Source: an uncultured Thermoplasmatales archaeon (GTDB taxonomy: Archaea > Thermoplasmatota > E2 > DHVEG-1). From it: a stretch of 64,000 nt of DNA. Every line of letters begins with the position of its first letter. Positions within the stretch are counted from its first letter, which is position 1. The notes under the pieces are model-generated. The model saw only the letters and a list, made by a program, of their open reading frames with translations, did no database searches and was not told the DNA's origin. Where the stretch lies: contig CAYFVP010000055.1 of the NCBI GenBank assembly GCA_964346655.1, positions 5,028 to 69,027 of the forward strand. The letters are read 5' to 3'. Below, piece by piece: positions 1-34,991 of this stretch. Both the position numbers and the translations under genes were made by a program.

Positions 1-585
1 AAAAGAGAGCGTATTAACAATTTCTTGGATGAGGAAAGAGATTATAGTGGAAACATCTCCGTATTACATCTTCTGGAATTTTTACGGGACGAAATTGGAT
101 TCGATAAGGTCAAAGACAAGGTTAAGAGGCCATTAAATGGCTTGAAGTTGTCCTCTTACTATGGTTGCCTTTTGTTGCGACCAGACGGCATAGGAATAGA
201 TGACATTGAAGCTCCAAGGGTAATGGAGAACCTTCTCGAGGCTTTGGGCGGCGAGGTGGTTGAAAGTCCATTTAAGATCGAATGTTGCGGCTCATACCAC
301 ACTGTTGATGATATCGAACCTGTAGTCGAGCGAACAAAAATTATAATCGACGCTATTAGTTCTAGGGGAGCAGAAGCCATTGTTGTTGCTTGCCCATTAT
401 GCTTTTTCAATCTAGATTATCGCCAAAAAAATGTGGAGTTGAAAAACAGAGTTTTCACTAGGATTCCGGTTTTTTATTTTACTCAACTTTTGGCAGTCGC
501 GTTGGGATTAGGCGACGATGTCTGTGATTTCGACCTTAATTATGTAGATCCACGACCTCTTTTAGTTAAAAAGAGATTGATTTAA
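1..585 (+). CDS. HdrB/SdhE/TfrB-like CCG-domain iron-sulfur protein (C-terminal part; frame open to window start, so probably 5'-partial)
   Basis: CCG cysteine-rich motif (ECCGSYH ... VVACPLCFFN); the frame has no stop back to position 1, and the first in-frame start is a TTG at 25. Confidence 0.55.
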   Translation, partial: KRERINNFLDEERDYSGNISVLHLLEFLRDEIGFDKVKDKVKRPLNGLKLSSYYGCLLLRPDGIGIDDIEAPRVMENLLEALGGEVVESPFKIECCGSYHTVDDIEPVVERTKIIIDAISSRGAEAIVVACPLCFFNLDYRQKNVELKNRVFTRIPVFYFTQLLAVALGLGDDVCDFDLNYVDPRPLLVKKRLI

Positions 586-603
586 AAAGAGAAATGATGA
601 AAA

Positions 604-1395
604 ATGAATAAAACAGGTCTTACTAAAGAAGGACATCCGGTGGATCCTCTGCTTAACACAGAATCAATACCATCTGGATGGTGTTCAGGCTGTGGAATTG
701 GCATGGTGGTCAATACCTTTGTTCAGGCAGTCAATAAAATGGATCTTGATGCTAAAAATATACATATAGTTTCGTCGGGTATCGGTTGCACAGGAAAGAT
801 TGACCAGCATTTAAGCTTTAAATCAGATAAGATAACCGATAGTAACGTAATTGCCTACGCAACAGATTTAGCAGCTAAAAAACCATATATAAAAGCGGTT
901 CTCTTCTTAAACGACACCGATTTCATTGCATCAAATATAGACGATTTTATAAAAGCTGGAAAGAAAGGAGCAAGAATCGTTGTGATATACATAAACAACT
1001 ACATCTATCGGATTTTTATGGAATGTAAAGGCCTGTCACAAACCCCATTTTTAAAAGAATCATCTAAAGATAAAATCGTATCCCCATTCAATATACCACA
1101 CTTAGCTAAATTGAGTGGTGCCGATTATATTGCAAGATGGACGCAATTACATATTCGTAGACTCATGTTTTCAATAAAAGATGCGCTTTCAACAGAGGGC
1201 TTTTCTGTGATCGAGGTTATAGCACCCTGCTTGATGTATTATATTAACACTATAAATTTAGGGAAAACGATTGATAGAATGGGGTTTTTTGAGGAAACTT
1301 CGATTATAAAACATCGCGAACCGACAGAGAATCTTGATCTTAGAAATCAGAAAGAGATCATAGTTGGAAGATTTGTGTGGAGGGAAGAGAATTGA
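604..1395 (+). CDS. KorB/PorB-like 2-oxoacid:ferredoxin oxidoreductase beta-subunit homolog, TPP-binding motif degenerate (paralog 1)
   Basis: WCSGCGIG, SGIGCTGK, YIARWT and IEVIAPC blocks align to the genuine KorB in this window, but GDGD is replaced by NDTD and YGMTGGQ is lost. Confidence 0.6.
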   Translation: MNKTGLTKEGHPVDPLLNTESIPSGWCSGCGIGMVVNTFVQAVNKMDLDAKNIHIVSSGIGCTGKIDQHLSFKSDKITDSNVIAYATDLAAKKPYIKAVLFLNDTDFIASNIDDFIKAGKKGARIVVIYINNYIYRIFMECKGLSQTPFLKESSKDKIVSPFNIPHLAKLSGADYIARWTQLHIRRLMFSIKDALSTEGFSVIEVIAPCLMYYINTINLGKTIDRMGFFEETSIIKHREPTENLDLRNQKEIIVGRFVWREEN

Positions 1396-2189
1396 GTGGA
1401 ACTAATATAACAACAGTAAGTCGCAAAGGACAACACCCAATCAATTCTTTTTTTTCACCAGATTTAATGCCATCTGTTTGGTGTCCAGGTTGTGGAATAG
1501 GTACAATTATATATACATTCGTTCAGGCAGTCGAAGAGATAAACGCTGATCCAGACAAAATATGTATAGTATCTGGCATCGGTTGCACAGGAAAAATTGC
1601 CATGTACTTGAATTTTGGTTCACATGAAACAACTGAGGGCAATGTAATTGCTTATGCCGCAGACTTGGCGGCTAAAAAAAAGGATATAAAGATAATTGTC
1701 TTTACAAATAATGCTGACTTTCTTTTATCCAGTAAAAAAGATTTTCTTGACATTGGAAAGAAAAGGACGAATCTTCTTGTGATACATATTAACAATATTA
1801 TATATTGCATTACAGAAAACAAAGCTATTCCAACATCACCATTCCTAAGAGCATCTTCCGATAATAATTTTGAGTTGCCATTCAACATTCCTCATTTAGC
1901 GAAATCGAGTGGGGCGGGGTATGTTGCACGATGGACACCACTCCGCGCAGGATGGTTGAAGTATTCAATTATTGAGGCCCTTTCAATGCGAGCCCTATCA
2001 GTAATTGAAGTGGTATCGCCTTGTATAGAGTATTATACATTTACAAATAAAATTGGAGATGCAGCTGATCGATTAAAGTTCTATAGTGATAATTCAGTAA
2101 TGAAACAATACGAACCTACTAAACACCTTGATCTCAGGTCTCAAAGCAAGGTCATTATAGGTAAGTTTGTAGATAAAAATGAGGGTTGA
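1377..2189 (+). CDS. KorB/PorB-like beta-subunit homolog, TPP-binding motif degenerate (paralog 2)
   Basis: WCPGCGIG, SGIGCTGK, YVARWT and IEVVSPC are conserved; GDGD is replaced by NNAD; overlaps the upstream paralog by 19 nt. Confidence 0.6.
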   Translation: MEGRELSGTNITTVSRKGQHPINSFFSPDLMPSVWCPGCGIGTIIYTFVQAVEEINADPDKICIVSGIGCTGKIAMYLNFGSHETTEGNVIAYAADLAAKKKDIKIIVFTNNADFLLSSKKDFLDIGKKRTNLLVIHINNIIYCITENKAIPTSPFLRASSDNNFELPFNIPHLAKSSGAGYVARWTPLRAGWLKYSIIEALSMRALSVIEVVSPCIEYYTFTNKIGDAADRLKFYSDNSVMKQYEPTKHLDLRSQSKVIIGKFVDKNEG

Positions 2190-2425
2190 ATAATCTTATG
2201 ACAGCCGAGATTCACATAATAAATGAACGATGCAAAGGATGCAAAATCTGCGTGGAAGTTTGTCAGACAAAAGTGTTAGATATAACCAAAGAGCCCAATC
2301 CTAGTGGATATAATCCTCCCTATGTTAAAAACCTTGAAGATTGCACCATTTGTGGACTTTGCGAAATGCTTTGCCCAGACTTTGCTATCCAAGTCTCTTA
2401 TATAGAGGAAGAAGATAATCTATGA
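2186..2425 (+). CDS. 2x[4Fe-4S] ferredoxin
   Basis: CKGCKICVEVCQ and CTICGLCEMLCP motifs; overlaps neighbours by 4 nt. Confidence 0.75.
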   Translation: MNNLMTAEIHIINERCKGCKICVEVCQTKVLDITKEPNPSGYNPPYVKNLEDCTICGLCEMLCPDFAIQVSYIEEEDNL

Positions 2426-3252
2426 AGCATACGATAACCCGTAAAGAAGCTCTAAACTCAGAGGATTTTTTAGTCGAAGTCAAAGCACCCTTAGTATCAA
2501 AAAAGTTTAAAGCCGGCCAATTTTTGATTTTGAGAATTCATGAAAAAGGCGAAAGGGTCCCACTGACTATCACTGATTGTAATCCAGAAAAAGGATTGGT
2601 AAGCATGATTGTTAAGGCAGTCGGAAAGACCACATTTGAATTGAGAAAGCTGGATAGAGGCAACTCTGTATTAGATATTGTCGGTCCTTTAGGCAATCCT
2701 TCCGAAATCGAGCAATTCGGAACTGTCGTTTGTGTCGGTGGCGGAACCGGAATCGCCTGTCTCTATCCCATCATCAAAGCCCTAAAAGCGGCTGGCAATT
2801 ATGTAATTACTATAATCGGTGCTAGAACCAAAGATAAATTGATTTGGGAGGATGAAATAAAGACAATTTGCGATGATATGATTGTAACTACTGATGACGG
2901 ATCATATGGTCATAAAGGCATTGTAACAGAATCATTGGAGGAGATACTAAAGAGTAAAACTGTCGACAGGGTAATAGCAATAGGCCCAATGATTATGATG
3001 AAATTTGTTGCTAAGATGACCAAGTCATATGGTGTAAAAACGGTGGTCAGTTTAAACACTATAATGATAGATGGTACAGGTATGTGCGGCGGATGTCGTG
3101 TATTTGTCGATGGCAAAATGAAATTCACGTGTATAGATGGACCGGAATTTGACGGACATAAGTTAAACTTTGATGAATTAATGAATCGACTAGACATGTT
3201 TAAAGAAAAAGAGAAACAAGCAATAGAACATTACAAAAGAGGTACAAAATAA
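2422..3252 (+). CDS. NfnA/SudB/PyrK-like FAD/NAD-binding oxidoreductase subunit with C-terminal 2Fe-2S (GMCGGCRV)
   Basis: ferredoxin-NADP reductase-like fold, GGGTGIA nucleotide motif, C-terminal CGGC cluster. Confidence 0.6.
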   Translation: MKHTITRKEALNSEDFLVEVKAPLVSKKFKAGQFLILRIHEKGERVPLTITDCNPEKGLVSMIVKAVGKTTFELRKLDRGNSVLDIVGPLGNPSEIEQFGTVVCVGGGTGIACLYPIIKALKAAGNYVITIIGARTKDKLIWEDEIKTICDDMIVTTDDGSYGHKGIVTESLEEILKSKTVDRVIAIGPMIMMKFVAKMTKSYGVKTVVSLNTIMIDGTGMCGGCRVFVDGKMKFTCIDGPEFDGHKLNFDELMNRLDMFKEKEKQAIEHYKRGTK

Positions 3253-4646
3253 TGGTAGATATAGGTGGAACTCGTATTCCAATGCGAGAGCAGCCGGTTC
3301 AAGATCGGATAAAAAATTTTCACTCCGTGCCGTTCGGCTACAACAAGGAAGAGGTGGTAGAAGAGGCACAGAGATGTATGATGTGTAAGCATGCCCCGTG
3401 TGAGATTAGCTGCCCAGTCCATCTGAAGATCAAGGCTATGATAAGAAAGATTGCCGAACGCAATTTTAAGGAAGCGTTTCTAATTGCTAAGCAGGATAAT
3501 CCAATCCCTGCAATCACAGGACGGGTTTGTCCGCAGGAAGATCAGTGCGAAGGTGTTTGTCCATTGGCAGAGACAAAAAACGGCATAAACATTGGTAAGT
3601 TGGAAGCATTCATAGCCGATTGGGCCATGGAACAAGGGATTACCGAGAAATTTCACATCAAGAATAGAGCAGAAAAGGTTGCAGTAATAGGTTCTGGACC
3701 TGCAGGCATTAGTTGTGCCGTGGACCTCCGTAAATTCGGTTATCAGGTAAAGATATTCGAGGCACTTCACAAAGCAGGCGGAGTACTCCAATACGGCATC
3801 CCAGCTTTTCGTTTGCCTAAGGATATTGTGGACTATGAGTTATCGTATCTAAAGGAAATAGGAGTAGATATACAGCTTAATAATATAATAGGACAAAACA
3901 TAAAGTTTAGTGAATTGCGTGATAACTTTGATGCAATTTTCATTGGTACAGGTGCAGGTGCCCCCCTGTTTGTAGGTATGGATGGAGAGAAACTCAATGG
4001 TGTTTATTCGGCCAACGAGTTTCTCATACGGGTAAATCTGATGAAAGCCTATAATTTCCCTAAACATGATACACCTATCGTTTGCGGAGATGAAGTGGGT
4101 GTTATCGGGGCAGGAAACGTTGCAATGGATGCTGCCAGATGCGCCCTTAGACTTGGTGCAAAGAATGTGTATATTTTATATAGAAGAACGAAACGAGAAT
4201 CACCAGCTAGGGATGAAGAATTACAACACGCACTTGAAGAGGGAATAATTTTCAAGGAATTAATTGCACCAACAAGGGTTTTGGGCAACAAAGAGGGTTG
4301 GGTGATAGGGATAAAACTGGCTAAAATGAAGCTTGGTGAACCTGATAAAAGCGGCCGCCCCAGACCCATAAAGATCGAGAATAGTGAGTTTACCATGAAA
4401 TTAGATACAGTTATAGAGGCTCTAGGATCCAGACCAAACAGGCTCTTTCTGGATAGAACACCTGAATTGGAAAGAAACAAATGGGGTGTGTTGGTAGTCG
4501 ACAAGGATCTTAATACGAATATAGGAGGAGTCTCTGCGGGTGGTGATGCGATAAGTGGTGGTGCTACCGTAATTCTCGCACTTGGAGAAGGAAGAGCAGC
4601 AGCAAAATCTATCCATAAATACTTATCAAAGGGGGATGATAAATGA
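3252..4646 (+). CDS. NfnB/SudA/GltD-like NAD(P)H-dependent FeS flavoprotein (glutamate synthase small-subunit family)
   Basis: N-terminal 4Fe-4S cysteines, two Rossmann GxGxxG/A motifs (VAVIGSGPAG, VGVIGAGNVA). Confidence 0.7.
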   Translation: MVDIGGTRIPMREQPVQDRIKNFHSVPFGYNKEEVVEEAQRCMMCKHAPCEISCPVHLKIKAMIRKIAERNFKEAFLIAKQDNPIPAITGRVCPQEDQCEGVCPLAETKNGINIGKLEAFIADWAMEQGITEKFHIKNRAEKVAVIGSGPAGISCAVDLRKFGYQVKIFEALHKAGGVLQYGIPAFRLPKDIVDYELSYLKEIGVDIQLNNIIGQNIKFSELRDNFDAIFIGTGAGAPLFVGMDGEKLNGVYSANEFLIRVNLMKAYNFPKHDTPIVCGDEVGVIGAGNVAMDAARCALRLGAKNVYILYRRTKRESPARDEELQHALEEGIIFKELIAPTRVLGNKEGWVIGIKLAKMKLGEPDKSGRPRPIKIENSEFTMKLDTVIEALGSRPNRLFLDRTPELERNKWGVLVVDKDLNTNIGGVSAGGDAISGGATVILALGEGRAAAKSIHKYLSKGDDK

Positions 4647-4945
4647 CGTCATTACAAGCCGCATTTGGTGCAGATAAAATCGAGATACCTTTAGGTAAAG
4701 TCCATATAGTTAAGGATAGGTGTAAAGGGTGTGGTTACTGTATAAAATATTGTCCAAGAGAGGTTTTGGAGGTTTCAGACAAGCTAAATAATAAAGGATA
4801 TTATTTTCCTCAAGTGAAAGATGAAGATACCTGCCTTAACTGTGGTCTCTGTGAACTAATTTGTCCAGAATTTGCTATTTGGTCTACATTAGAGGGGTAT
4901 ATAAAACCGAAATTGACGAAGGTGGTGGTTAATGAATCCCCCTAA
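4643..4945 (+). CDS. 2x[4Fe-4S] ferredoxin
   Basis: CKGCGYCIKYCP and CLNCGLCELICP. Confidence 0.75.
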   Translation: MTSLQAAFGADKIEIPLGKVHIVKDRCKGCGYCIKYCPREVLEVSDKLNNKGYYFPQVKDEDTCLNCGLCELICPEFAIWSTLEGYIKPKLTKVVVNESP

Positions 4946-6929
4946 ATCCGAGCCGGCAATTGGTATATTCATATGTCACTGCGGAAAGAACATCGCAACT
5001 ACCGTCGATGTTGATGAGGTAACACAGAACGTGGCAGGGCTTGAAGGTGTAGTATTTGCCGAGAATTATAAGTATATGTGTTCCGAACCAGGTCAAAAAT
5101 TGATACGCGATACGATTCGCGATAAGCGATTGACAGGGGTTGTAATCGCCGCATGTTCACCTCGCCTCCATGAAGTTACTTTTCAGCAGACCGTAGCTGC
5201 AGCAGATTTAAATCCATATCTATGTGAGATAGCTAATATCCGTGAGCAATGCAGCTGGGTGCATAAGGATAAAGAAAAGGCGACGAAAAAGGCTATTAAG
5301 ATAACTAGATCATTAGTGGAAAAGGTTAAACTCAACGACGTCCTCACACCGATTAGCATCCCTGTTATCAAAAAATGCCTGGTCATTGGAGCTGGGATAA
5401 GCGGGATGCAAGCTGCACTCGATATAGCTGACGCGGGTTTTAAGGTTATCCTAGTTGAAAAGAACTCATCGATTGGAGGGCACATGGCACAACTTTCCGA
5501 AACCTTCCCTACTCTCGATTGCTCGCAATGTATACTCACACCCAAGATGATGGAGGTTGGAAACCACCCAAATATCGAGTTATTAACTTATTCTGAAGTC
5601 GTAGAGGTCAACGGATATATTGGTAATTTCAATGTCAAGGTGAAAAAGAAACAAAGATATGTGGATATCGATAAATGTACTGGCTGTAATGAATGTACCA
5701 ACGTCTGCCCCGCTGTAGTCCCTAGTGAATTCGACGAAGGGCTTGGTTTGAGAAAGGCAATATATCTCCCCTTTCCACAAGCAGTGCCTCAAGCTTATGT
5801 TTTGGATGATCAAGCCTGCCTCGGCTTGCTTCCATTAGCATGTAGTAAGTGTATGGATGTCTGCGAGCCCGGTGCGATAGATCTAGATCAACATCCTGAA
5901 TATTTGGAAGTTGAGGTCGGCACGATTATTGTTGCTACTGGATACGAACTTCTACCAAAGGAGAATATAGGTGAGTACGGGTATGGAACATACAAAGACG
6001 TAGTCAATGGATTGCAATTTGAGCGGTTATTATCTGCTTCTGGCCCAACGTTTGGCGAGATTAGGAGGCCTTCTGATGGTAGGATCCCTAAAGAAGTTGT
6101 GTTCGTACAATGTGTTGGTTCTCGGGACCCAGAACATAGTATGCCTTATTGTTCCAAGATCTGTTGCATGTATACTGCCAAACACGCAAAGCTCTACAAA
6201 CATGCGGTTCCTGATGGTCAGGCATATGTTTTTTATATCGACATCCGCTCTGCTGGGAAGGGCTATGAAGAATTTGTGCAACAGACCATCGAAGAGGAAG
6301 GGGTCATATATTTGAGGGGCAAGGTCTCAAGAGTCTTCCGTGATGAAAAGGAAGATAAAATGATTGTCTGGGGTGTAGATACCCTTACAGGCAAGAAGAT
6401 AGAAATCGCAGCAGATATGGTGGTTCTTGCAATGGCATTGGTTCCAAGCGAGGGTATTAAGGAGCTTACTAAAAAATTGAAGATTTCAATGGACACATTT
6501 GGATTTATTACTGAAGCACATCCCAAACTGAGGCCCATCGACACTGCCACCCGAGGTATATTCCTGGCTGGTTGCAATCAAGCTCCAAAGGATATTCCAG
6601 ATACTGTTGCCCAGGCATCAGGAGCAGCTGCTAAGGCGTCGATACCGCTTCTGCAGGGAAAGATTGAACTTGATCCCCAAACCTGTACTGTAAATGAAGA
6701 TATGTGTAGTGGATGTGGAATGTGTGAATCCATATGCGGGTATGACGCTATTGAAATAATAGATGATCCGAACCATCCAAAAAAGAAAATAGCTAGAGTC
6801 AATGACGTACTATGCGAGGGTTGCGGTTCTTGTGCAGGAGCATGCCCAGCAGGTGCAATGGAACAGAAAGGATTCAAAAGCAATCAACTTCATGCGATGA
6901 TAGATGTATTTTTAACTAAAGGAGGATAA
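4932..6929 (+). CDS. hdrA: heterodisulfide reductase subunit A (HdrA) family FAD/FeS protein
   Basis: N-terminal CHCGxNI cysteine cluster, VIGAGISGMQAALD FAD motif, LDCSQCILTPKM, inserted ferredoxin domain; typical length of 665 aa. Confidence 0.8.
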   Translation: MNPPKSEPAIGIFICHCGKNIATTVDVDEVTQNVAGLEGVVFAENYKYMCSEPGQKLIRDTIRDKRLTGVVIAACSPRLHEVTFQQTVAAADLNPYLCEIANIREQCSWVHKDKEKATKKAIKITRSLVEKVKLNDVLTPISIPVIKKCLVIGAGISGMQAALDIADAGFKVILVEKNSSIGGHMAQLSETFPTLDCSQCILTPKMMEVGNHPNIELLTYSEVVEVNGYIGNFNVKVKKKQRYVDIDKCTGCNECTNVCPAVVPSEFDEGLGLRKAIYLPFPQAVPQAYVLDDQACLGLLPLACSKCMDVCEPGAIDLDQHPEYLEVEVGTIIVATGYELLPKENIGEYGYGTYKDVVNGLQFERLLSASGPTFGEIRRPSDGRIPKEVVFVQCVGSRDPEHSMPYCSKICCMYTAKHAKLYKHAVPDGQAYVFYIDIRSAGKGYEEFVQQTIEEEGVIYLRGKVSRVFRDEKEDKMIVWGVDTLTGKKIEIAADMVVLAMALVPSEGIKELTKKLKISMDTFGFITEAHPKLRPIDTATRGIFLAGCNQAPKDIPDTVAQASGAAAKASIPLLQGKIELDPQTCTVNEDMCSGCGMCESICGYDAIEIIDDPNHPKKKIARVNDVLCEGCGSCAGACPAGAMEQKGFKSNQLHAMIDVFLTKGG

Positions 6930-6932
6930 AAC

Positions 6933-7631
6933 ATGCCTAAAGACAAAAAAATGATTCCAATATATATTACCGGAAAAAAATATCTAGTCCCATATGGCCT
7001 AACCATTATGAAAGCAATGGAATATGCAGGTTATCGGTATATAAGAGGCTGTGGCTGTCGAGGTGGTTTCTGTGGCGGATGCGGGACTGTTTATAGATAT
7101 AAGGGCGACTACAAGCTTCAATCAGGTCTTGCATGTCAGACCATAGCAGAGGAGAACATGTATTTGGTCCAGATTCCGTTTTTTCCTGCAAATAAAGCTA
7201 ATTATAATTTAGATGAACTTAAGCCAGTAGGTAGCACACTCCTTAAATTATACCCTGAGCTAGCTAGATGTATTAGTTGCAATACTTGTACTAAAGTTTG
7301 CCCACAAGATATAGAGGTAATGGACTATATGCAGGCCGCACTTAAAGGTGACATCACAAGCGCCGCGGATGTATCATTCGATTGCATAATGTGCGGGTTA
7401 TGTGCAGCTCGATGTCCCGCTGAGATTGTGCAGTATAACATTGCGATACTTTGTCGTCGTTTGTATGGCAAATATATGACACCAAAAGCAGAGCATGTTA
7501 AGATAAAAGCAGCTGAAATTTCTGAGGAAAAATTCGATAAAGAACTAAAAAAACTTATGAAATCCGATATTAAGACACTTAAAAAATTGTATAATGAACG
7601 TAAAATAGAACCTGAGGAGAGTAAGAGGTAA
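6933..7631 (+). CDS. succinate dehydrogenase/fumarate reductase iron-sulfur subunit-like (FrdB/SdhB/HdrC-like)
   Basis: N-terminal 2Fe-2S-type cysteines (CGCRGGFCGGC...C), then CISCNTCTKVCP and CIMCGLCAARCP. Confidence 0.55.
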   Translation: MPKDKKMIPIYITGKKYLVPYGLTIMKAMEYAGYRYIRGCGCRGGFCGGCGTVYRYKGDYKLQSGLACQTIAEENMYLVQIPFFPANKANYNLDELKPVGSTLLKLYPELARCISCNTCTKVCPQDIEVMDYMQAALKGDITSAADVSFDCIMCGLCAARCPAEIVQYNIAILCRRLYGKYMTPKAEHVKIKAAEISEEKFDKELKKLMKSDIKTLKKLYNERKIEPEESKR

Positions 7632-7636
7632 CGAAC

Positions 7637-9256
7637 ATGTACACCAAAGATATGATAGATTCAATAAATCGCCTGAAGGAAACTCGTAGTAAAAGGATGA
7701 AGCAAGAGTTACCTTTTTTAACTTCTGAAGAGAAATATGATTTATTAAATAGATTCCATCCTGATTATAGAAAAGGGACTTTAAGAGAGCTAAAAATCGG
7801 TCCTAATAAAGGAGAGAGAGTGATACAAGAAATCGCCAACTTATTTGAAGCCTATAGCAAAATCGATCCCAATAATTTCGATATTTCAAAAATAGATTAT
7901 GACGCTGATGTTCTTGTAATCGGAGGGGGCGGTGCTGGTGCTTCAGCGGCTTTGATTGCTCAAGAGAATGGTGCGAATGTTTTGTTAGCTACCAAACTTC
8001 GATTTGGTGATTCGAATACAATGATGGCCCAAGGTGGAATTCAGGCTGCAGATAAACCGAACGACTCTCCATCCATACATTACTTAGACGTGGTTGGTGG
8101 TGGTGGATTCGATAATACGCCAGAATTAGTAAATGCTTTGGTTCGAGATGCACCTGAGGCTATTGCATGGCTCGAGGACCTTGGCGTTATGTTTGATAAA
8201 AAGAGTGATGGAACTATGATCACGATCCATGGTGGCGGCACTTCTAGAAAGAGAATGCATTCTGCTAGAGATTACACAGGTGGCGAGATAATGAAAACTT
8301 TACGGGATGAGGTCAAAAATCGGGGCATAGATGTTATTGAGTTTTCACCTGCAATCGAACTTTTAACTGATGATGGGAAATGTACAGGTGCAATATTATA
8401 TAATCTTGAGACTAATGAATATATTATAGTTCAAGCAAAAACAACTATTCTTGCTACGGGTGGTGCAGGCAGATTACATGTCCAAGATTTTCCAACATCC
8501 AACCATTACGGCGCAACAGCTGATGGATTAGTTATAGCATATCGCGCAGGCAATCCTGTCATCTTCATGGATAACATTCAATACCATCCAACAGGAGCAG
8601 CCTTTCCCGAACAAATCGTCGGTCTTCTCGTCACTGAGAAATGTAGGGGACTGGGTGCACAATTGGTAAATAACGATGGAGATAGATTCATTTATGAACT
8701 CGAAACAAGAGATATTGAATCTGCAGCCATAATTAAAGAATGTATCGAGAGAAAAAAAGGAATTAAAACACCAACTGGCATATTAGGTGTTTGGCTCGAT
8801 ACGCCCATGATCGAGATCATTCATGGGAAAGGTACAATCCAAAAGAAACTACCAGCCATGTACAGACAATATCAACGTTTCAATATAGATATGAGTAAAG
8901 AACCACTCCTTGTTTATCCGACCCAACACTTTCAGAATGGTGGGATAATTGTCAATGAAAAGGCTGAGACAAAGGTTGCAAACTTGTATGGGGCTGGAGA
9001 AGTCGAAGGCGGTGTTCACGGACGTAACAGATTAATGGGTAACTCGTTATTGGAATGCATCGTATTTGGGAGACGCGCAGGTAAGAACGCTGCTCAGAAA
9101 GCAAAAGAAATCGAGTTTAGAAAACTTACACTTCAGCATATCCAGAAATATCATATAGAATTAAAAATGGCAAATATAGCAGAGGATATAACGTCACCTA
9201 TGCTCTTACCAGATTATCGGCGAAATGAGACAATCGCAAGAATGATTGATATTTGA
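7637..9256 (+). CDS. fumarate reductase/succinate dehydrogenase flavoprotein subunit-like (FrdA/SdhA/TfrA family)
   Basis: VIGGGGAGASAAL FAD motif; C-terminal RLMGNSLLECIVFGRRAG block typical of this family. Confidence 0.75.
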   Translation: MYTKDMIDSINRLKETRSKRMKQELPFLTSEEKYDLLNRFHPDYRKGTLRELKIGPNKGERVIQEIANLFEAYSKIDPNNFDISKIDYDADVLVIGGGGAGASAALIAQENGANVLLATKLRFGDSNTMMAQGGIQAADKPNDSPSIHYLDVVGGGGFDNTPELVNALVRDAPEAIAWLEDLGVMFDKKSDGTMITIHGGGTSRKRMHSARDYTGGEIMKTLRDEVKNRGIDVIEFSPAIELLTDDGKCTGAILYNLETNEYIIVQAKTTILATGGAGRLHVQDFPTSNHYGATADGLVIAYRAGNPVIFMDNIQYHPTGAAFPEQIVGLLVTEKCRGLGAQLVNNDGDRFIYELETRDIESAAIIKECIERKKGIKTPTGILGVWLDTPMIEIIHGKGTIQKKLPAMYRQYQRFNIDMSKEPLLVYPTQHFQNGGIIVNEKAETKVANLYGAGEVEGGVHGRNRLMGNSLLECIVFGRRAGKNAAQKAKEIEFRKLTLQHIQKYHIELKMANIAEDITSPMLLPDYRRNETIARMIDI

Positions 9257-9565
9257 TGTACATTATGTATGGGTTATATGCTTATTTTAATAAAATTCTA
9301 GTATTACTAAATACGATCAGATGCTTAATCATAAATCTCCGCGATTTCAGAATATTTAATATATTTTTATCTTCCGTGAATTTGTACAACTTTCAAAGCC
9401 AGCAGATATAGCTATTGCTACAAAACATATATGAATCTCAGGTTTTAAGAATAACATTTAAATGAAAAAAAGAATAGCAAATTTAACATATAGTGATAAT
9501 ATACGGGGTCTAAATAGTTACACAATGAAACAGAATCATATAAGATATAGGAGTATAAGAATAAC

Positions 9566-10726
9566 ATGGAATACAATTTTGAGGACAGTGATCCTGCAAA
9601 ACGGAAATTTTGGCAGGGAAATATAGCAACAGCTGAAGGTGCTATTGATGCTGGTTGCCGTTTCTTTGCAGGTTATCCAATTACTCCTTCATCTGAGATT
9701 TTACATCATCTTTCTAATAGATTGCCTCAAATTGGCGGTGTATGTGTTCAAATGGAAGATGAAATCGCATCTCTGGGTGCTGTTATTGGAGCTAGTTGGG
9801 CCGGAGTAAAAGCAATGACTGCAACATCTGGTCCTGGTTTTTCATTGATGCAGGAAAACATTGGTTATGCTGTTATGACAGAGACACCTTGTGTGATTGT
9901 TGATGTGATGCGTGTCGGACCGAGCACAGGACAGGCAACTCTAGCTAGTCAGGGAGATGTATATCAAGCACGGTATGGATCGCATTGTGCAGATTATGAA
10001 ATTATCACAGTGGTTCCAAGTTCTGTAAAAGAAAGCTATGAGCTAATTATACAAGCTTTTAATCTTGCTGAGCAATATCGTACACCAGTTATTTTTCTTT
10101 CTGATGGACATTTATCACGCATGAGTGAAACATTTGAAATACAAGAGAAACAGCTTATTATAAATAGAAAAAAACCAACACATAAAGGCGAATCTATTTT
10201 TGGGTCTATTTATGACAGCGAGCTTGTTCCACCTATGCCTTCTTTAGGCGAAGGATATAATGTTTTGGTCACAGGTAGCACGCATGATATTAGGGGATTT
10301 AGAGACACTTTAAATGGAGAAATCCATAGAAAACTAATGCATCGTCTTGTCAAAAAAATAATTCATAATAGAGAGAAAATCATTAAAATCGAGGAAAATA
10401 AACCTGAAGACACAATAATTGGAATTATTAGTTATGGATCTGTTTCAAGAGCTGTCTGGGAGATGCAAGAATTAGCTGAAAAGGAGAATATAAAGCTGGC
10501 TCACTTAAGGCTAATTACTCTCTGGCCTTTCCCAGATGAAAAAGTAAAATCATTTTTAAGCGGACTAAAACATGTGATCGTCCCTGAGCAAAATTCTGGT
10601 TTAATTGTTAGAGAAATTGAGAGATGTACGAATGGAAATACAGATGTTCATTCATTATCAAAAATTGGTGGAGGAGAACCCATTACCCCTAGTGAATTAT
10701 TGGATTTAGTAGTGAGTTTATCATGA
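9566..10726 (+). CDS. korA: 2-oxoacid:ferredoxin oxidoreductase alpha subunit
   Basis: family-typical blocks GYPITPSSEI, TSGPGFSLM and VMRVGPSTG. Confidence 0.8.
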   Translation: MEYNFEDSDPAKRKFWQGNIATAEGAIDAGCRFFAGYPITPSSEILHHLSNRLPQIGGVCVQMEDEIASLGAVIGASWAGVKAMTATSGPGFSLMQENIGYAVMTETPCVIVDVMRVGPSTGQATLASQGDVYQARYGSHCADYEIITVVPSSVKESYELIIQAFNLAEQYRTPVIFLSDGHLSRMSETFEIQEKQLIINRKKPTHKGESIFGSIYDSELVPPMPSLGEGYNVLVTGSTHDIRGFRDTLNGEIHRKLMHRLVKKIIHNREKIIKIEENKPEDTIIGIISYGSVSRAVWEMQELAEKENIKLAHLRLITLWPFPDEKVKSFLSGLKHVIVPEQNSGLIVREIERCTNGNTDVHSLSKIGGGEPITPSELLDLVVSLS

Positions 10727-11454
10727 TCGAGGAAATATATGACAAATTTTTGCGGGTGACTCCAAAATTCTGCATGGGTTGTGGAAATGAAAAAGTAGTT
10801 GATTCTTTGATCCTTGCTATTGATAATTTATATGGTTCAATGGAAGGTTTTGTATTTCTAAGTGGTATTGGTTGTGCAGCATGGATACCAAGTCCTCATT
10901 TTAAAGCAGATACTATACATACAACACATGGGCGTCCAATAACTTTTGCAACTGGGATTAAACTAGCAAATCCTAATTTAAAAGTAGTGGTCATAAGTGG
11001 AGATGGAGACCTTGCTGGAATAGGTGGTAATCACCTTATTCATGCAGCTAGGAGAAACCTTGAGATTACGGTGATTTGCGTAAATAACCTAGTCTATGGT
11101 ATGACTGGTGGTCAATTTAGTCCTACAACACCTCGTGGGGCTATTACAAAAACAACATTAAAGGGTAACCTAGAGTATCCTTTTGATCTAGCAAGATTGG
11201 TAGCAAATGCAGGAGCCTCATATGCTGCTAGATGGACTACCGTTCATAAAACAGAACTCCAAAGTTCTATTGAAAAGGCATTGAAAAAAGGGCAAAAAGG
11301 ATTTGCTTTTATTGAAGTAATCTCACCGTGCCCTACACAATTCACACGTCGGAATCTTAAAGCCTTTCAGACAATAAAAAATCAACTAAATTTTGGAGAG
11401 TTCATTGATGTTGAACGGGACGGTTTTGCAGAGAAATTTCGAAAAAGTATTTGA
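10723..11454 (+). CDS. korB: 2-oxoacid:ferredoxin oxidoreductase beta subunit (intact TPP site)
   Basis: SGIGC, GDGD...NN TPP/Mg motif, YGMTGGQ, YAARWT, IEVISPC. Confidence 0.85.
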   Translation: MIEEIYDKFLRVTPKFCMGCGNEKVVDSLILAIDNLYGSMEGFVFLSGIGCAAWIPSPHFKADTIHTTHGRPITFATGIKLANPNLKVVVISGDGDLAGIGGNHLIHAARRNLEITVICVNNLVYGMTGGQFSPTTPRGAITKTTLKGNLEYPFDLARLVANAGASYAARWTTVHKTELQSSIEKALKKGQKGFAFIEVISPCPTQFTRRNLKAFQTIKNQLNFGEFIDVERDGFAEKFRKSI

Positions 11455-11531: not shown

Positions 11532-12002
11532 ATGGGAAATATAATTGGTACAGCCGCTACTCTCCATGGGTTGTTTGCAACCCAAGTTAGTACCTATGAT
11601 GCTTCACAGCGTGGCATGCTTGTTCATACTGATATAATTATTTCAAATGAACCTGTTAAGTTTGCTTTTGTAAATAAACCAGATTTCTTTATAGTCATGA
11701 CTCCTCAAGGATTTAATGAGTTCAGTAAAAGGATGGGTGAAGATACATTAGTTTTTATTAATTTGGATCGTATGAATGACTTTAAATTGAATTACCCAGG
11801 AAAAATTATTTCATTACCCGCATCAGAAATTGCAAAAGAAATAGGAAACCCTATTGGAGCAAATTTTGTGATGCTGGGGAAATTTTTGTCAACCACTCAA
11901 ATTATACCATTAGAGATTGTTGAAAAAGCAATAAAACAAAATATACCAGAAAAATTAATAATGAAAAATCTAGAAGCTGTGAGAATAGGAAGTACTATTT
12001 AA
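11532..12002 (+). CDS. korC: 2-oxoacid:ferredoxin oxidoreductase gamma subunit; the conserved N-terminus (IKILIAGNGGQG) lies upstream of the first in-frame start, so an apparent frameshift
   Basis: gamma-subunit GxGGQG motif is encoded in-frame at 11472-11531 but has no start codon; an ATG at 11467 is in another frame across a G5 run. Confidence 0.7.
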   Translation: MGNIIGTAATLHGLFATQVSTYDASQRGMLVHTDIIISNEPVKFAFVNKPDFFIVMTPQGFNEFSKRMGEDTLVFINLDRMNDFKLNYPGKIISLPASEIAKEIGNPIGANFVMLGKFLSTTQIIPLEIVEKAIKQNIPEKLIMKNLEAVRIGSTI

Positions 12003-12283
12003 CTCTAAACATTATACGATCACAAGTCATCTATTTACCACGATTCTCTGCTTCGCTGCAAACTTCTATTACTCTTTCTTTTAAATTGGTAGATTATTTA
12101 AAATCTGCAGCTATAAAATATTTCATAGAAAGTGTTGCCGCCTTTGTTGAAAAAACTAGTTTAAAATGATAAAAAAATTGGTTAAAACAAATGACTGTAA
12201 AACTTTAGAAACATTTATCTATTTAGCCTAACATCGCCATCTTAGGTTTGGCAATCATTAATTGCTTATCTGGGGGAGCAATA

Positions 12284-13066
12284 ATGAAATATGAAACCCT
12301 TGAAATACAAATAGAAAAAGATGTTGCAACAGTGTTTCTTAATAGACCAGAAGTTCACAATGCAATGAATGAAAAATTAATGAAAGAATTAACTGCATGT
12401 TTTAAAAAATTTACCATTGATCAAAGTATTAGAATTATAATTTTAACTGGTAAAGGTAAATCATTCTGCGCTGGTGCCGATCTAAACTGGATGAAAAGCA
12501 TGGCTAAATATGATAAAAATGAAAATATTAAGGATAGTCGGCTTTTATCAAATCTTTTTGAATCAATTTATAATTGTCCAAAACCTGTTATTGCCAGAGT
12601 AAATGGTCATGCTTTTGGTGGTGGATTAGGTTTATTTGTTGTATGTGATATAGTAATTGCTATATCAAATTGTAAGTTTGCGTTTAGTGAGGTAAAACTT
12701 GGAATCATTCCTTCTGTAATCTCAACATATATTGTAAGAAGGATAGGTCTTGCTAATATGAGAAGGCTTTTTGTAACAGGAGAGAGATTCAACTCAGATT
12801 ATGCGCAAAATATTGGTCTAATAGATTTTGTTGTTTCCGAAGATGAATTAAATGATAAAGTCAAGAAATATATTGAATTATTACGATCTTCTGGTCAAAT
12901 TGCAATTAAAGAAGTAAAAAAATTAGTAGATGCATGTGAAAATATGAATAGAAAAGATTATATCGAGTATACAATAAACAAGATTGCAGAACTTAGAGTA
13001 TCTAAAGAAGGACAAGAAGGTATAAATGCTTTTCTTGAAAAAAGAAAACCCGATTGGAGTGGATAG
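12284..13066 (+). CDS. enoyl-CoA hydratase/crotonase family protein
   Basis: crotonase blocks (GKGKSFCAGADL, NGHAFGGGLGL); GGGGGAG SD before the ATG at 12284. Confidence 0.75.
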   Translation: MKYETLEIQIEKDVATVFLNRPEVHNAMNEKLMKELTACFKKFTIDQSIRIIILTGKGKSFCAGADLNWMKSMAKYDKNENIKDSRLLSNLFESIYNCPKPVIARVNGHAFGGGLGLFVVCDIVIAISNCKFAFSEVKLGIIPSVISTYIVRRIGLANMRRLFVTGERFNSDYAQNIGLIDFVVSEDELNDKVKKYIELLRSSGQIAIKEVKKLVDACENMNRKDYIEYTINKIAELRVSKEGQEGINAFLEKRKPDWSG

Positions 13067-14574
13067 TTATTTTCAAAAAAATCCTTATTGCCAACCGTGG
13101 AGAAATTGCCGTCAGAATCATTAAAGCATGCCAGGAAATGGGTATTAAAACTGTTGCAATTTATTCTAATGTTGATAATAATGCTCCTCATGTTCAACTT
13201 GCTGATGAAACTATAAATTTAGGCGATCCAACTCCTATTGAAAGTTATTTAAATATTTCAAAAATTATTAAGATTGCCCAAGATGCTGGAGCAGAAGCAA
13301 TTCATCCGGGTTATGGTTTTCTTGCTGAAAATCCTGATTTTGCCAAATCCTGTAATGATATAGATATCAAGTTTATTGGTCCAAGCCCTGAGGTTATTAG
13401 TCTCATGGGCGATAAAATTGTTGCAAAAACAAAAATGGAAAATGCAGGTGTTCCAGTAATTCCAGGATATCATGGTGATGCTCAAGATAGCTCGTCCTTA
13501 ATAAATGTAGGTAAAAAAATTGGTTTTCCACTTCTAGTTAAAGCTGCAGCAGGTGGTGGTGGAAAAGGGATGAGAATTATATATTCTCAGGACCTTTTAG
13601 AAGAATCAATTGAAAGTGCAAAGCGTGAATCAAAATCTTCATTTGGTAATGACACAGTTTTTCTTGAAAAATATATTGATAAACCCAGACATATTGAGTT
13701 TCAAATTCTTGCAGATGAATATGGCAATACTATTCATCTCTTTGAAAGAGAATGCTCTATTCAAAGAAGGCATCAAAAGATAATCGAAGAAACACCATCT
13801 CCTGTTGTTACATCTGAACTTCGTAAAAAAATGGGAGATGCGGCAGTAGCTGCTGCAAAAGCAGTAGGCTATACAAATGCTGGAACTGTCGAATTTATGG
13901 TTGATGGTAATCTGAACTTCTATTTTATGGAGATGAATACTCGTCTTCAAGTGGAGCATCCCATTACTGAAATGACTACAGGTATTGATCTTGCCAAGTG
14001 GCAATTGAAAATTGCCAGTGGAGAAAAATTAACTATAAAACAAAATGATTTATTTCAAAGAGGTCATGCAATTGAATGTCGAATTTATGCAGAAGATCCT
14101 TCTAATGGTTTTCTTCCTAGTGTTGGAACTATTGGAAAAGTTGAAGCTACAACTGGACCTAATATCAGAAATGATACAGGAATATATTCTGGTATGGAGG
14201 TTACCTCATACTATGATCCGATGCTTGCAAAACTTATAACATATGCAGAAAATAGACTTGATAATATTAACAAGATGATATGGGCTCTTTCTCATTATAT
14301 CATTCTTGGAGTTACCACAAATATATCCTTTCTAAAAGAAGTTCTTGGCCATGTTGAATTTAAAAAAGCAAACATTACAACACATTTCATAGACAATTAT
14401 TTTCAAGATTGGACAGTTACAAAAAATGGTTTACCTATCGATGCGATTATTGCACTTGCAGTATACGATTCTATGCACTCAAAATCCCAAGAAATTGTAA
14501 GATACAAAGAAGCTGATCCTCATTCACCATGGAAGCATGTAGGTAGATGGCGAGTTGGTGGAAGGGAGGTGTAA
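13054..14574 (+). CDS. accC: biotin carboxylase subunit of acetyl/propionyl-CoA carboxylase (archaeal split type)
   Basis: ILIANRGEIAVR, ATP-grasp GGGGKGMR, EMNTRLQVEHPITE. Confidence 0.85.
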   Translation: MEWIVIFKKILIANRGEIAVRIIKACQEMGIKTVAIYSNVDNNAPHVQLADETINLGDPTPIESYLNISKIIKIAQDAGAEAIHPGYGFLAENPDFAKSCNDIDIKFIGPSPEVISLMGDKIVAKTKMENAGVPVIPGYHGDAQDSSSLINVGKKIGFPLLVKAAAGGGGKGMRIIYSQDLLEESIESAKRESKSSFGNDTVFLEKYIDKPRHIEFQILADEYGNTIHLFERECSIQRRHQKIIEETPSPVVTSELRKKMGDAAVAAAKAVGYTNAGTVEFMVDGNLNFYFMEMNTRLQVEHPITEMTTGIDLAKWQLKIASGEKLTIKQNDLFQRGHAIECRIYAEDPSNGFLPSVGTIGKVEATTGPNIRNDTGIYSGMEVTSYYDPMLAKLITYAENRLDNINKMIWALSHYIILGVTTNISFLKEVLGHVEFKKANITTHFIDNYFQDWTVTKNGLPIDAIIALAVYDSMHSKSQEIVRYKEADPHSPWKHVGRWRVGGREV

Positions 14575-14578
14575 ATAG

Positions 14579-15073
14579 TTGTTTATAAATTACGAGCATG
14601 AAAACCATGTTTTCAATGTTACAATTGAACACAAGGATAATTATTATTTTGTTATTTATGATAATACAGAATACAAGGTAGAAGCTGAGGAAATAAAACC
14701 AGGGCAATTGAAAATAAAGATTGGTGATAGAACAGTTAAATCAATTATTACAGAAGGTAATAAAGAAAAATATATTTTTATCGATGGAGCAGTTTTCAAA
14801 GTAAAACCTGTGGAACTTACTGGCCTTAAAAAACAAAAGAAAAAAGATAAAGGCGATCTTGGTTCACCAATATCTGGAAAGGTTGTAAGTGTTAAGGTAA
14901 AAAATGGTGATTCTGTCAAAAAAGGTGATGTTTTAATGATTATTGAGGCCATGAAAATGGAGTATCTTATAAGAGCCCCTTATCCTGGAGTTATAAAAAA
15001 GATAAATTTTAAAGAAAATGAACAAATTGAAATTGGACAGGTTACATTAGAACTCTTTAAAAAGGGAGGATAG
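14579..15073 (+). CDS. accB: biotin carboxyl carrier protein
   Basis: biotinyl-lysine motif IEAMKMEY near the C-terminus; TTG start directly after the accC stop. Confidence 0.8.
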   Translation: MFINYEHENHVFNVTIEHKDNYYFVIYDNTEYKVEAEEIKPGQLKIKIGDRTVKSIITEGNKEKYIFIDGAVFKVKPVELTGLKKQKKKDKGDLGSPISGKVVSVKVKNGDSVKKGDVLMIIEAMKMEYLIRAPYPGVIKKINFKENEQIEIGQVTLELFKKGG

Positions 15074-15077
15074 GTAA

Positions 15078-32972: not shown

Positions 32973-33023
32973 GAAATTCCTCTTATTTTCAGGTAAAATG
33001 GGAAGAGATATTCCCAAATAGTC

Positions 33024-33311: not shown

Positions 33312-33326
33312 ATAAATTCCCCCAAG

Positions 33327-34977: not shown

Positions 34978-34991
34978 AATTATTTCCTCCG

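Follow-up and report, generated by a model that had tools for sequence, protein, structure and literature searches.

A candidate NAD(P)H- and ferredoxin-linked, HdrABC-type bifurcating fumarate reductase system in a Thermoplasmatota archaeon

Introduction

Could soluble archaeal proteins couple the reduction of fumarate by NAD(P)H to the formation of reduced ferredoxin? This question is raised by an operon at the start of a 64-kb stretch of DNA from an uncultured Thermoplasmatales archaeon (contig CAYFVP010000055.1; the 64,000 nucleotides analyzed are referred to below as the window), in which genes for HdrABC-, NfnAB- and fumarate reductase-like proteins stand together with genes derived from 2-oxoacid:ferredoxin oxidoreductases (OFORs). 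To our knowledge, quinone-less organisms, for instance many sediment archaea, have no way to conserve the energy of NADH-dependent fumarate reduction. Plain NADH:fumarate reduction dissipates approximately 58 kJ/mol (PMC13147460). An Hdr-type bifurcating fumarate reductase, so far proposed for bacteria, would conserve that energy as reduced ferredoxin. We hypothesize, with a probability of roughly 50%, that the operon encodes a cytoplasmic, quinone-independent, NAD(P)H- and ferredoxin-linked HdrABC-type bifurcating fumarate reductase system, which would be an independent and compact archaeal version of this idea.

The bacterial precedents differ in their gene content. A reductive tricarboxylic acid cycle cluster of tubeworm symbionts, Thioflavicoccus mobilis and relatives has korABCD and tfrAB genes set among flxABCD-hdrABC, and for the symbiont cluster a bifurcation has been proposed in which NADH provides electrons both for fumarate and for ferredoxin or 2-oxoglutarate:ferredoxin oxidoreductase (OGOR) [PMC6315080, PMC11636981, PMC13147460]. 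The genes are co-expressed in Candidatus Endoriftia, for which the model allows a DsrC-like intermediary [PMC11636981]. The cultured succinate producer Pseudoclostridium thermosuccinogenes possesses a Kor-less Flx-Hdr set and a two-gene fumarate reductase in a 'succinate operon' with fumarate hydratase; this operon is up-regulated approximately 4-fold as a unit, and the physiology of the organism fits ferredoxin-coupled succinate formation [PMC7282089]. The same paper cites a preprint of 2019 in which the succinate operon was proposed to encode a bifurcating fumarate reductase of a novel type. Hence, an Hdr-coupled, ferredoxin-reducing soluble fumarate reductase is already known for bacteria as a hypothesis, and in the literature searched we found no purified enzyme or structure of this kind.

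Extent and gene content of the operon

Domains were assigned with Pfam and NCBIfam profiles and their curated equivalog cut-offs. Ten open reading frames (ORFs), all on the + strand, occupy window positions 1-9256, at the coordinates given by an earlier, sequence-only reading of this DNA:

1..585, + strand, HdrB-like CCG protein, of which the C-terminal 194 of 291 residues (98-291) lie in the window; Pfam CCG, TIGR03288 HdrB at 122 bits
604..1395, + strand, KorB-like 1, OFOR beta paralog with [4Fe-4S] Cys ligands; GDGD changed to NDTD, YGMTGGQ loop lost
1377..2189, + strand, KorB-like 2, OFOR beta paralog with four invariant Cys; GDGD changed to NNAD, YGMTGGQ to YCITENK
2186..2425, + strand, Fd1, 2x[4Fe-4S] ferredoxin of the OFOR delta (KorD) type; best match NF042987 OGOR_delta
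2422..3252, + strand, NfnA/NfnS-type FAD/NAD(H)/[2Fe-2S] subunit; PRK06222 at 412 bits, above the cut-off of 220
3252..4646, + strand, NfnB/NfnL-type bifurcating FAD/NADPH/2x[4Fe-4S] subunit; TIGR01316 at 552 bits, above the cut-off of 471.75
4643..4945, + strand, Fd2, second KorD-type 2x[4Fe-4S] ferredoxin, directly 5' of HdrA; OGOR delta as best model
4932..6929, + strand, HdrA of the canonical bifurcating type; 743 bits, residues 6-658 aligned with 2-647 of 5ODC_A
6933..7631, + strand, FrdB-like Fe-S subunit, with an N-terminal [2Fe-2S] domain, two 4-Cys [4Fe-4S] motifs and a C-terminal helical tail, recognized from its motifs
7637..9256, + strand, FrdA-like flavoprotein, PF00890; FAD_binding_2 at 270 bits, N-terminal extension of 87-90 aa

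The subunit identities of the sequence-only reading are all recovered by Pfam and NCBIfam HMM searches, except that the name FrdB-like comes from Cys motifs and weak profile matches. Its operon-like packing also holds, as the inter-gene junctions span -19 to +18 nt and none in the whole unit exceeds 18 nt; at Fd1 the value hinges on the choice of start codon, either the ATG at window position 2198 (the public call, +8 nt gap) or the TTG at 2186 (-4 overlap). The count of ten genes, however, has to be revised, since the window edge cuts the unit. Window position 1 lies inside hdrB, which in the public record with an exact match to the window (GCA_012974965.1, JABAOF010009932.1; locus L001) starts at position 9107, 290 nt upstream. 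A gene for a 260-aa HdrC-like protein and the first 97 hdrB codons thus precede the window, the unit begins 1,080 nt upstream of it, and on the source contig it is counted as 12 genes (11-12 proteins) rather than 10, with the product order HdrC-HdrB-KorB-like 1-KorB-like 2-Fd1-NfnA-NfnB-Fd2-HdrA-FrdB-like-FrdA-like. Shine-Dalgarno-like motifs precede most of the starts. As gaps inside the unit are at most 18 nt, compared with spacers of 105 nt 5' of the HdrC-like gene and 309 nt (AT-rich) 3' of the FrdA-like gene, the 12 genes are probably transcribed as one unit. A scan for sigma-70 promoters and terminators gave nothing above shuffled controls; the model is unsuited to an archaeon and the result was not used. 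The closest named relatives are metagenome-assembled genomes (MAGs) labelled Thermoplasmatales or Thermoplasmata archaeon.

Cofactor sites of the Hdr and Frd-like subunits

The features of a bifurcating HdrABC-type enzyme are present. HdrA aligns end to end with its Methanothermobacter wolfeii homolog and possesses the N-terminal, inserted and C-terminal ferredoxin sites as well as the thioredoxin-reductase-like FAD domain, with every cluster-ligand Cys conserved in 44 orthologs. K417 corresponds to K409 of the bifurcating M. wolfeii HdrA, the Lys residue at the flavin N5 [PMC6405883]. Residues 1-287 of the full-length HdrB align with solved HdrB chains, and both CX31-39CCX35-36CXXC motifs, which contain the ligands of the non-cubane [4Fe-4S] clusters (C9/41/42/78/81 and C153/192/193/228/231), are complete and 98-100% conserved in 45 syntenic orthologs. 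The HdrC-like protein has the two [4Fe-4S] sites of a Fer4_8/Fer4_17 dicluster domain (residues 153-215), preceded by an N-terminal winged-helix (Penicillinase_R/FUR-like) domain. HdrA scores 835 bits against the HdrA2 model (cut-off 1100) and HdrB 122 bits against the HdrB model (cut-off 345), the HdrB query being the 194-aa window fragment and not the full-length protein. Since these scores lie below the equivalog cut-offs, the proteins are best described as an Hdr-like enzyme and not as an annotated CoM-S-S-CoB reductase.

The extra domain of the HdrC-like protein coincides with a possible operator. At L001 8268-8297, approximately 1.1 kb upstream of the window, a TATA-like CTTATAAG is followed by the perfect 22-bp palindrome ACAATTGTAATATTACAATTGT, which lies approximately 20 nt 5' of the HdrC-like gene, the first of the operon. 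A TATA-like box and the palindromic core GTAATATTAC are retained in a relative (L083 7478-7520), and in the more distant locus L084 the winged helix, the TATA-like box and the palindrome are all missing. This co-occurrence suggests a putative Fe-S-containing autoregulator fused to HdrC.

The presumed terminal acceptor module consists of the FrdB-like and FrdA-like proteins, the genes of which constantly adjoin each other. In the 232-aa FrdB-like protein the ligands C42-x4-C47-x2-C50-x17-C68, C113/116/119/123 and C151/154/157/161 are 100% conserved in 30 orthologs, and the profile matches to FrdB of Escherichia coli (1kf6_B) and Wolinella succinogenes (1e7p_B), although weak (E about 1e-4), are in the correct order. 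Its AlphaFold2 (AF2) model is poor (pLDDT 64; Foldseek TM-score <= 0.3) and was used only for the 2Fe-2S-like N-terminal domain. The FrdA-like protein lacks the helical and C-terminal domains, so that structure alignments with SdhA/FrdA end at approximately residue 420 of 588-602. The fumarate/succinate catalytic set (H317, T333, E334, R337, R358, H431 and R465) is invariant in 29 orthologs. The position of the flavinylated His is occupied by N127, equally invariant in these 29 orthologs, and the FAD is predicted to be bound non-covalently. E. coli FrdA variants at H44 show that non-covalent FAD permits fumarate reduction but not succinate oxidation. The Asn residue thus favors the reductase direction. 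L-aspartate oxidase was considered as the main identity of the FrdA-like protein and rejected, based on the invariant adjacency of its gene to the Fe-S subunit and Hdr genes.

The best-matching model for the FrdA-like protein is TfrA (NF004900), at 360 bits against a cut-off of 718 and over model positions 6-425 of 546. The TfrB model (NF004898, cut-off 385) gives weak matches for the FrdB-like and HdrB-like proteins, with scores of 28.7 and 18.1 bits. These matches bear on a coupling through a thiol/disulfide carrier, whereby HdrABC would reduce a heterodisulfide or protein disulfide (DsrC-like or CoM/CoB-like), and the FrdAB-like pair and the CCG protein would re-oxidize the thiols with fumarate in a TfrAB-like manner. 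TfrB is a fusion of an FrdB-like and an HdrB-like half, both encoded by separate genes here, the substrate-binding non-cubane motifs of HdrB are fully intact, and the Endoriftia model permits a DsrC-like intermediary [PMC11636981]. However, a single CCG protein would have to serve two thiol-handling roles, the FrdB-like protein has no CCG domain, no carrier or thiol-cofactor biosynthesis gene is present in the cluster, and the TfrA and TfrB scores fall far below their cut-offs, which makes this coupling improbable.

The FrdA/FrdB-like proteins are among the most conserved in the clusters, being 66-91% identical to their best public matches in several archaeal and bacterial lineages, where they carry generic names only. 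Better naming would alter the metabolism reconstructed for Thermoprofundales, Bathyarchaeia, Methanomassiliicoccales, Aminicenantes and others. Two further observations concern this pair. The cluster (window 1-9256) has 40% G+C, compared with 32% for window 9257-64000, and the identity to homologs in Bathyarchaeia, Methanomassiliicoccales and bacteria amounts to 66-70%; both are compatible with strong constraint, lateral transfer, or a combination of the two. In an assembly labelled [Eubacterium] cellulosolvens (L169 6221-9867), the genes before the FrdB/FrdA-like pair encode, instead of HdrA, MvhD and an Fe-S protein of 392 aa whose C-terminal part gives a faint FrhB/FdhB match, possibly another electron-input variant.

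The NfnAB and KorB-like subunits

Both Nfn subunits are full length, and they are approximately 57-58% identical to the proven bifurcating enzyme NfnI, in line with the earlier view of HdrA and NfnB as canonical bifurcation modules. NfnA scores 334 bits against the small subunit of Pyrococcus furiosus NfnI (5JCA_S), with the DGTGMCGGCR motif aligned, and NfnB scores 530 bits against 5JCA_L. R187 (FRLP) of NfnB, the residue in contact with the flavin N5 [PMC6405883], is conserved. In this lineage the nfnAB pair is constantly accompanied by KorB-like and KorD-like genes.

The two KorB-like proteins, 49% identical to each other and each 27% identical to the genuine KorB encoded in the window, belong to the TPP_enzyme_C proteins and miss all OFOR-beta model cut-offs by a factor >2. 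The four [4Fe-4S] Cys residues (C36/C39/C70/C216) are invariant in the family. The Mg-thiamine pyrophosphate (TPP) motif GDGD, in contrast, reads x-D-x-D in the KorB-like 1 and N-N-A-D in the KorB-like 2 proteins, and the YGMTGGQ loop is lost, YRIFMEC standing at its position in KorB-like 1. The previously noted TPP-less character of both homologs is thereby well supported by sequence, and the proteins are predicted not to bind TPP. An AF2 model of KorB-like 2 (pLDDT 83) shows the OFOR beta fold, with a TM-score of 0.71 to OorB of Helicobacter pylori (8ys5_C). A profile search that covered 1.84 billion cluster representatives exhaustively placed 42 proteins with the degenerate signature among its best 150 matches, and GDGD and YGMTGGQ are intact in all other complete sequences among these. 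There is no KorA (PYR-domain alpha) partner inside the five-gene module KorB-like 1-KorB-like 2-Fd-NfnA-NfnB; instead, two beta paralogs are encoded side by side. An origin of the KorB-like proteins from an Hdr-embedded KorB was considered and dropped, as neither kind of KorB, Hdr-embedded or ordinary, is the closer one (distance 0.66-0.67 to both) and a neighbor-joining tree was uninformative. Fd1, 43% identical to Fd2, is always encoded between KorB-like and NfnA in loci with this module. The homolog of Fd2 in the bacterial clusters is the KorD of a real OGOR.

A different kind of degenerate OFOR was also observed, in which a second KorA'-KorB' pair directly follows a normal KorA-KorB, often next to HdrA (L007, L008, L009, L013, L015, L016, L092, L095-L097 and L123, in WOR-3, Stahlbacteria, Zixibacteria and others). 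KorB' has neither the GDG motif nor the cluster Cys residues (e.g. IGDLxTL, no CxGCG).

Two separately conserved modules and their combination

An alignment of the KorB-like proteins was used to scan species-representative genomes and metagenome contigs, and every ORF in 168 loci was compared with 13 proteins of the region. Of 555 confirmed relatives the best 80 were kept, so that co-occurrence counts are samples, not censuses. The comparison shows that the operon is a composite of two modules, each of which is conserved separately. Module (a) has the order HdrC-HdrB-KorD-KorA-KorB(-KorG)-HdrA-[MvhD/FlxD-FlxC-FlxB-FlxA]-FrdB-like-FrdA-like and is present in approximately 35 of the 168 loci, from Eubacteriales, Aminicenantes, Coatesbacteria, Planctomycetota, WOR-3 and Alpha-, Beta- and Gammaproteobacteria. 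The synteny of hdrCBA and the FrdB/FrdA-like genes in these loci thus extends over many phyla, with orthologs 45-87% identical, and the embedded KorB is TPP-competent without exception. The sequence-only reading had not recognized any operon that unites Hdr, Nfn and Tfr modules with OFOR-derived subunits; clusters of Hdr, Tfr/Frd-like and OFOR genes (HdrCBA, FrdBA-like and KorDAB(G), with or without FlxABCD) are in fact widespread in bacteria and have already been discussed. The interval between hdrA and frdB-like in the Hdr-Frd core contains FlxDCBA in 11 loci, only MvhD in 5 and nothing in 5.

Module (b) is the five-gene unit KorB-like 1-KorB-like 2-Fd-NfnA-NfnB. Fd-NfnA-NfnB follows the degenerate, Cys-retaining KorB-like genes in every locus that extends far enough. 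In the window, module (b) is located between hdrB and the Fd2 gene preceding hdrA, which is the place of KorA-KorB in the bacteria, and no Flx genes are present between hdrA and frdB-like (4-nt gap). The composite order recurs in the complete chromosome of Thermoplasmatales bin45 (CP070724.1; L082, 77-92% identity, other flanks), in L089 (82-93% identity, contig cut at Fd2) and in the more distant L084 (45-80% identity). In L084 the flanks differ, HdrC is devoid of the extra domain, and a gene for MvhD has been added, located between HdrA and FrdB-like. As the order recurs, at 64-87% amino-acid identity, in at least three other genomes or contigs, the arrangement is not due to chance. The composite order sought by the synteny check proposed with the earlier reading is thus found, yet it resolves into two separately conserved modules.

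Bin45 carries, in addition, a second, partial copy of the front of the cluster (L083 11861-12542 and 15338-16894), which ends inside nfnB (227 aa) near a DDE transposase and adjoins methylmalonyl-CoA genes; the complete copy (L082) is located approximately 560 kb away, outside a methylmalonyl-CoA context.

The modular structure raises the possibility of two separate, co-transcribed enzymes: a five-subunit Nfn variant, acting as an NADH/NADPH/ferredoxin transhydrogenase with built-in Fe-S acceptors, and an HdrABC-Fd2-FrdAB fumarate reductase with a donor encoded elsewhere, e.g. an MvhAGD hydrogenase or formate dehydrogenase. Five MAGs (L003-L006 and L011) contain module (b) as a stand-alone unit among unrelated genes; in L005, L006 and L011 it is flanked upstream by a sigma-54 two-component system or an ECF-type sigma factor and downstream by RadC, formate-tetrahydrofolate ligase or thiolase genes. 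Conversely, module (a) is found without (b) in approximately 30 bacterial loci, NfnA and NfnB closely resemble the self-sufficient NfnI, MvhD, the usual hydrogenase adaptor, stands between HdrA and FrdB-like in L084, and group 3c hydrogenases have been reported in Thermoprofundales MAGs [PMC11287216]. On the other hand, module (b) is inserted between hdrB and hdrA and not appended, and it is physically linked to HdrA or MvhD-domain genes in 9 of 14 distinct loci, in four arrangements. For instance, it is a divergently oriented neighbor in L017 (WOR-3), the order is Fd-KorB-like-Fd-NfnA-NfnB-HdrA-KorB-like in L088 and L090 and Fd-NfnA-NfnB-HdrA-KorB-like in L091, and an MvhD-domain polyferredoxin gene lies between Fd and NfnA in the Cloacimonetes loci L086/87. 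Module (b) and Flx also appear to be complementary. MAG CAYSQW01 possesses a Flx-less core (L020) and an unlinked, stand-alone module (b) (L011), and MAG DASRVI01 a module (b) (L004) and a core (L046), the L046 contig ending before the Flx position. We consider two separate enzymes a serious but less probable alternative to a linked bifurcating fumarate reductase.

The varied, independent linkages of module (b) to HdrA or MvhD, together with its apparent complementarity with Flx, are evidence, but not proof, that HdrA complexes may use KorB-like/Fd/NfnAB as an exchangeable NAD(P)H module. The side of the bifurcating system at which NAD(P)H enters would then be modular, with Flx in most bacteria and an Nfn-based unit here. 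In this unit, NfnAB, a proven bifurcating enzyme, would be permanently associated with two TPP-less OFOR beta-subunits, which may exemplify the reuse of a catalytic subunit for electron conduction.

Proposed mechanism and direction of the reaction

From the gene content, the conservation of cofactor sites and of synteny, and the modular exchange with Flx, we infer the physical association of the subunits, the electron path, the direction and the substrate. NAD(P)H would be oxidized by the NfnAB-type module, and the electrons would reach the HdrA flavin via the KorD-like ferredoxin(s) and both KorB-like proteins; the latter, with [4Fe-4S] clusters only, would be catalytically dead OFOR remnants that could act as wire or scaffold. 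HdrA would then split the electron pair. The high-potential electron would pass from HdrC through the non-cubane clusters of HdrB and the FrdB-like protein to the non-covalent FAD of the FrdA-like protein, where fumarate would be reduced to succinate, and the low-potential electron would leave via the HdrA ferredoxin domains and Fd2 to ferredoxin, usable by the adjacent KorABG or by energy-converting systems. The net reaction would be 2 NAD(P)H + fumarate + 2 Fd(ox) -> 2 NAD(P)+ + succinate + 2 Fd(red). With textbook potentials of +30, -320 and about -450 mV, it is calculated to release approximately 43 kJ per fumarate (-43 kJ).

The proposal is based on the full-length HdrA with its K409 equivalent and cluster ligands, the intact HdrB motifs, the intact catalytic set and N127 of the FrdA-like protein, the HdrCBA-FrdB/FrdA-like synteny, the regulation of the bacterial analog, the exchangeable NAD(P)H modules and the tight gene junctions. 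Several points weigh against it. The bacterial Flx-Hdr-Frd complex is itself a hypothesis only, and the presumed homology of the FrdB-like protein to SdhB/FrdB is drawn from motifs and weak profile matches. The direct wiring from HdrB to the FrdB-like protein, as well as the substrate of the FrdA-like protein, is deduced, and L-aspartate oxidase has the same catalytic residues. NfnAB is a complete bifurcating enzyme alone, for which a simple 'input' role is not obvious; were NfnB to bifurcate in its usual manner, HdrA would receive ferredoxin-level electrons, and such a role would also be energetically odd. As module (b) stands alone in five MAGs, it need not bind Hdr, and the MvhD adaptor present in L084 is absent from the window operon.

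Finally, the neighboring methylmalonyl-CoA genes also fit succinate oxidation. The system could operate in reverse as an electron-confurcating succinate dehydrogenase, in which succinate and reduced ferredoxin would reduce NAD(P)+ for propionate oxidation via methylmalonyl-CoA. Genes for methylmalonyl-CoA mutase, epimerase and an acyl-CoA carboxylase are located immediately upstream and those for a second carboxylase downstream, carboxyltransferase genes lie 3' of module (b) in Cloacimonetes, which are proposed propionate oxidizers [PMC12590816], and Hdr-type bifurcation is reversible in principle. However, the His residue for covalent FAD, needed for succinate oxidation in the classical enzymes, is an invariant Asn, the methylmalonyl-CoA neighborhood is not conserved (the flanks of L082 and L084 differ), and the cultured and symbiont analogs operate in fumarate-reducing pathways. 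Hence, we regard the oxidative direction as unlikely.

A more far-reaching version of the bifurcating fumarate reductase is that all 11-12 proteins form one supercomplex, in which the bifurcating FAD (b-FAD) of NfnB and the FAD of HdrA would be placed in series via a dead OFOR remnant composed of the KorB-like heterodimer and the KorD-like ferredoxins, so that NADPH, NADH, ferredoxin and fumarate would all be coupled; KorB-like/Fd/NfnAB would then be an unrecognized exchangeable HdrA module in many uncultured phyla. We view this as rather doubtful. Of the bifurcating or confurcating assembly linked to fumarate, NAD(P)H and ferredoxin that the sequence-only reading had proposed, the linked system gains support, whereas a single complex is not secure, as module (b) is a self-contained operon elsewhere.

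Comparison with known systems

The operon shares with the bacterial Flx-Hdr-Frd clusters the HdrC-HdrB...HdrA-FrdB-like-FrdA-like backbone (orthologs 45-67% identical), a KorD-type ferredoxin before HdrA, an OFOR in or beside the cluster and the proposed chemistry from NAD(P)H to fumarate and ferredoxin. It differs in the absence of FlxABCD, in KorB-like 1/KorB-like 2/Fd/NfnA/NfnB at the KorDAB(G) position, in an embedded 'Kor' without TPP motifs, the real KorABG being outside the unit, in the extra winged-helix domain of HdrC and in its archaeal host. Compared with MvhAGD-HdrABC of methanogens (PDB 5ODC), HdrA shows a full-length identity of approximately 60% and contains all clusters and the flavin Lys, and the HdrB motifs and the HdrC dicluster are shared. 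However, the operon encodes neither a hydrogenase nor MvhD, fumarate via the FrdAB-like pair, and not CoM-S-S-CoB, is the presumed high-potential acceptor, and the model cut-offs are not reached.

Classical NfnAB (NfnI; PDB 4YRY, 5JCA) is a stand-alone heterodimer that uses free ferredoxin. Its two subunits are matched here above the NCBIfam cut-offs, but the pair is preceded by one or two TPP-less KorB paralogs and a KorD-like ferredoxin, both here and in approximately 14 other loci, and is often joined to HdrA. Like TfrAB of Methanothermobacter, the system would be a soluble archaeal fumarate reductase in which an FrdA-like flavoprotein is combined with FrdB-like (Fe-S) and HdrB-like (CCG) parts. 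It differs from TfrAB in that the TfrA score is half the cut-off, the FrdA-like protein is approximately 120 C-terminal residues short and newly extended at its N-terminus, separate genes encode the FrdB-like and CCG parts, and HdrA, HdrC and Nfn are present. The KorB-like proteins resemble the OFOR beta-subunit (H. pylori OorDABC, 8YS5) in fold and in the four Cys ligands, as Fd1 and Fd2 resemble the OGOR delta-subunit, but they have lost GDGD and YGMTGGQ and have no alpha partner.

The five-subunit, NADH-dependent FrdABCDE of Hydrogenobacter thermophilus, attributed to Miura et al. 2008, reportedly has extra subunits that are GltD/NfnB-like and HdrB/C-like. In another paper this multi-subunit fumarate reductase is summarized as soluble, linked to NAD(P)H and part of the reductive tricarboxylic acid cycle [PMC13147460]. 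The enzyme is described as non-bifurcating and irreversible, and HdrA, NfnA and KorB-like subunits are not reported for it.

Taken by defining features, those of HdrABC and NfnAB are found, and at least one is missing for each of TfrAB, classical SdhA/FrdA and OFOR-beta. No characterized complex with the same gene order was found, and the literature searched describes no archaeal or Nfn/KorB-like version and no five-gene module of this kind. Three aspects thus appear to be new: an archaeal variant with an Nfn-based module in place of Flx, the conserved five-gene KorB-like/Fd/NfnAB unit, and the family of OFOR beta paralogs without TPP motifs.

Neighboring genes and further observations

The 12-gene unit is followed on the + strand by a spacer and a genuine OFOR:

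9257..9565, no strand, AT-rich spacer of 309 nt, the probable end of the 12-gene unit and korABG promoter region
9566-10726 / 10723-11454 / 11532-12002, + strand, genuine OFOR KorA / KorB / gamma, KorB with intact SGDGD...NN...YGMTGGQ

KorABG is a probable ferredoxin-consuming or ferredoxin-producing partner of the unit, and korA-korB are also located 3' of the cluster in L082, where the spacer between the FrdA-like gene and korA measures 147 nt. Window positions 9272-9535 are real sequence where the public record has a run of N (L001 about 18669-18875); an apparent 57-nt indel between the two was rejected, as the length difference is due to this run.

The upstream neighbors on L001 are acyl-CoA carboxylase, thiolase, methylmalonyl-CoA epimerase and mutase, and enoyl-CoA hydratase genes. 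Two acyl-CoA carboxylase sets (carboxyltransferase, biotin carboxylase and biotin carboxyl carrier protein (BCCP)) flank the cluster, at window 12248-16685 and L001 4599-8211, each near an enoyl-CoA hydratase gene. ARAGORN found no tRNA gene in the 64-kb window. Further downstream (window 27980-37479, - strand), genes are found for an aldehyde:ferredoxin oxidoreductase, an 852-aa fusion protein with Fer2_4, Nqo3-type Fer4, GltD/NfnB-like and DUF7508 domains, as well as BcrAD/BadFG-type ATPases and HGD-D subunits (two of each). The products form a system that resembles benzoyl-CoA reductase or 2-hydroxyacyl-CoA dehydratase and includes an NfnB-related electron module of its own.

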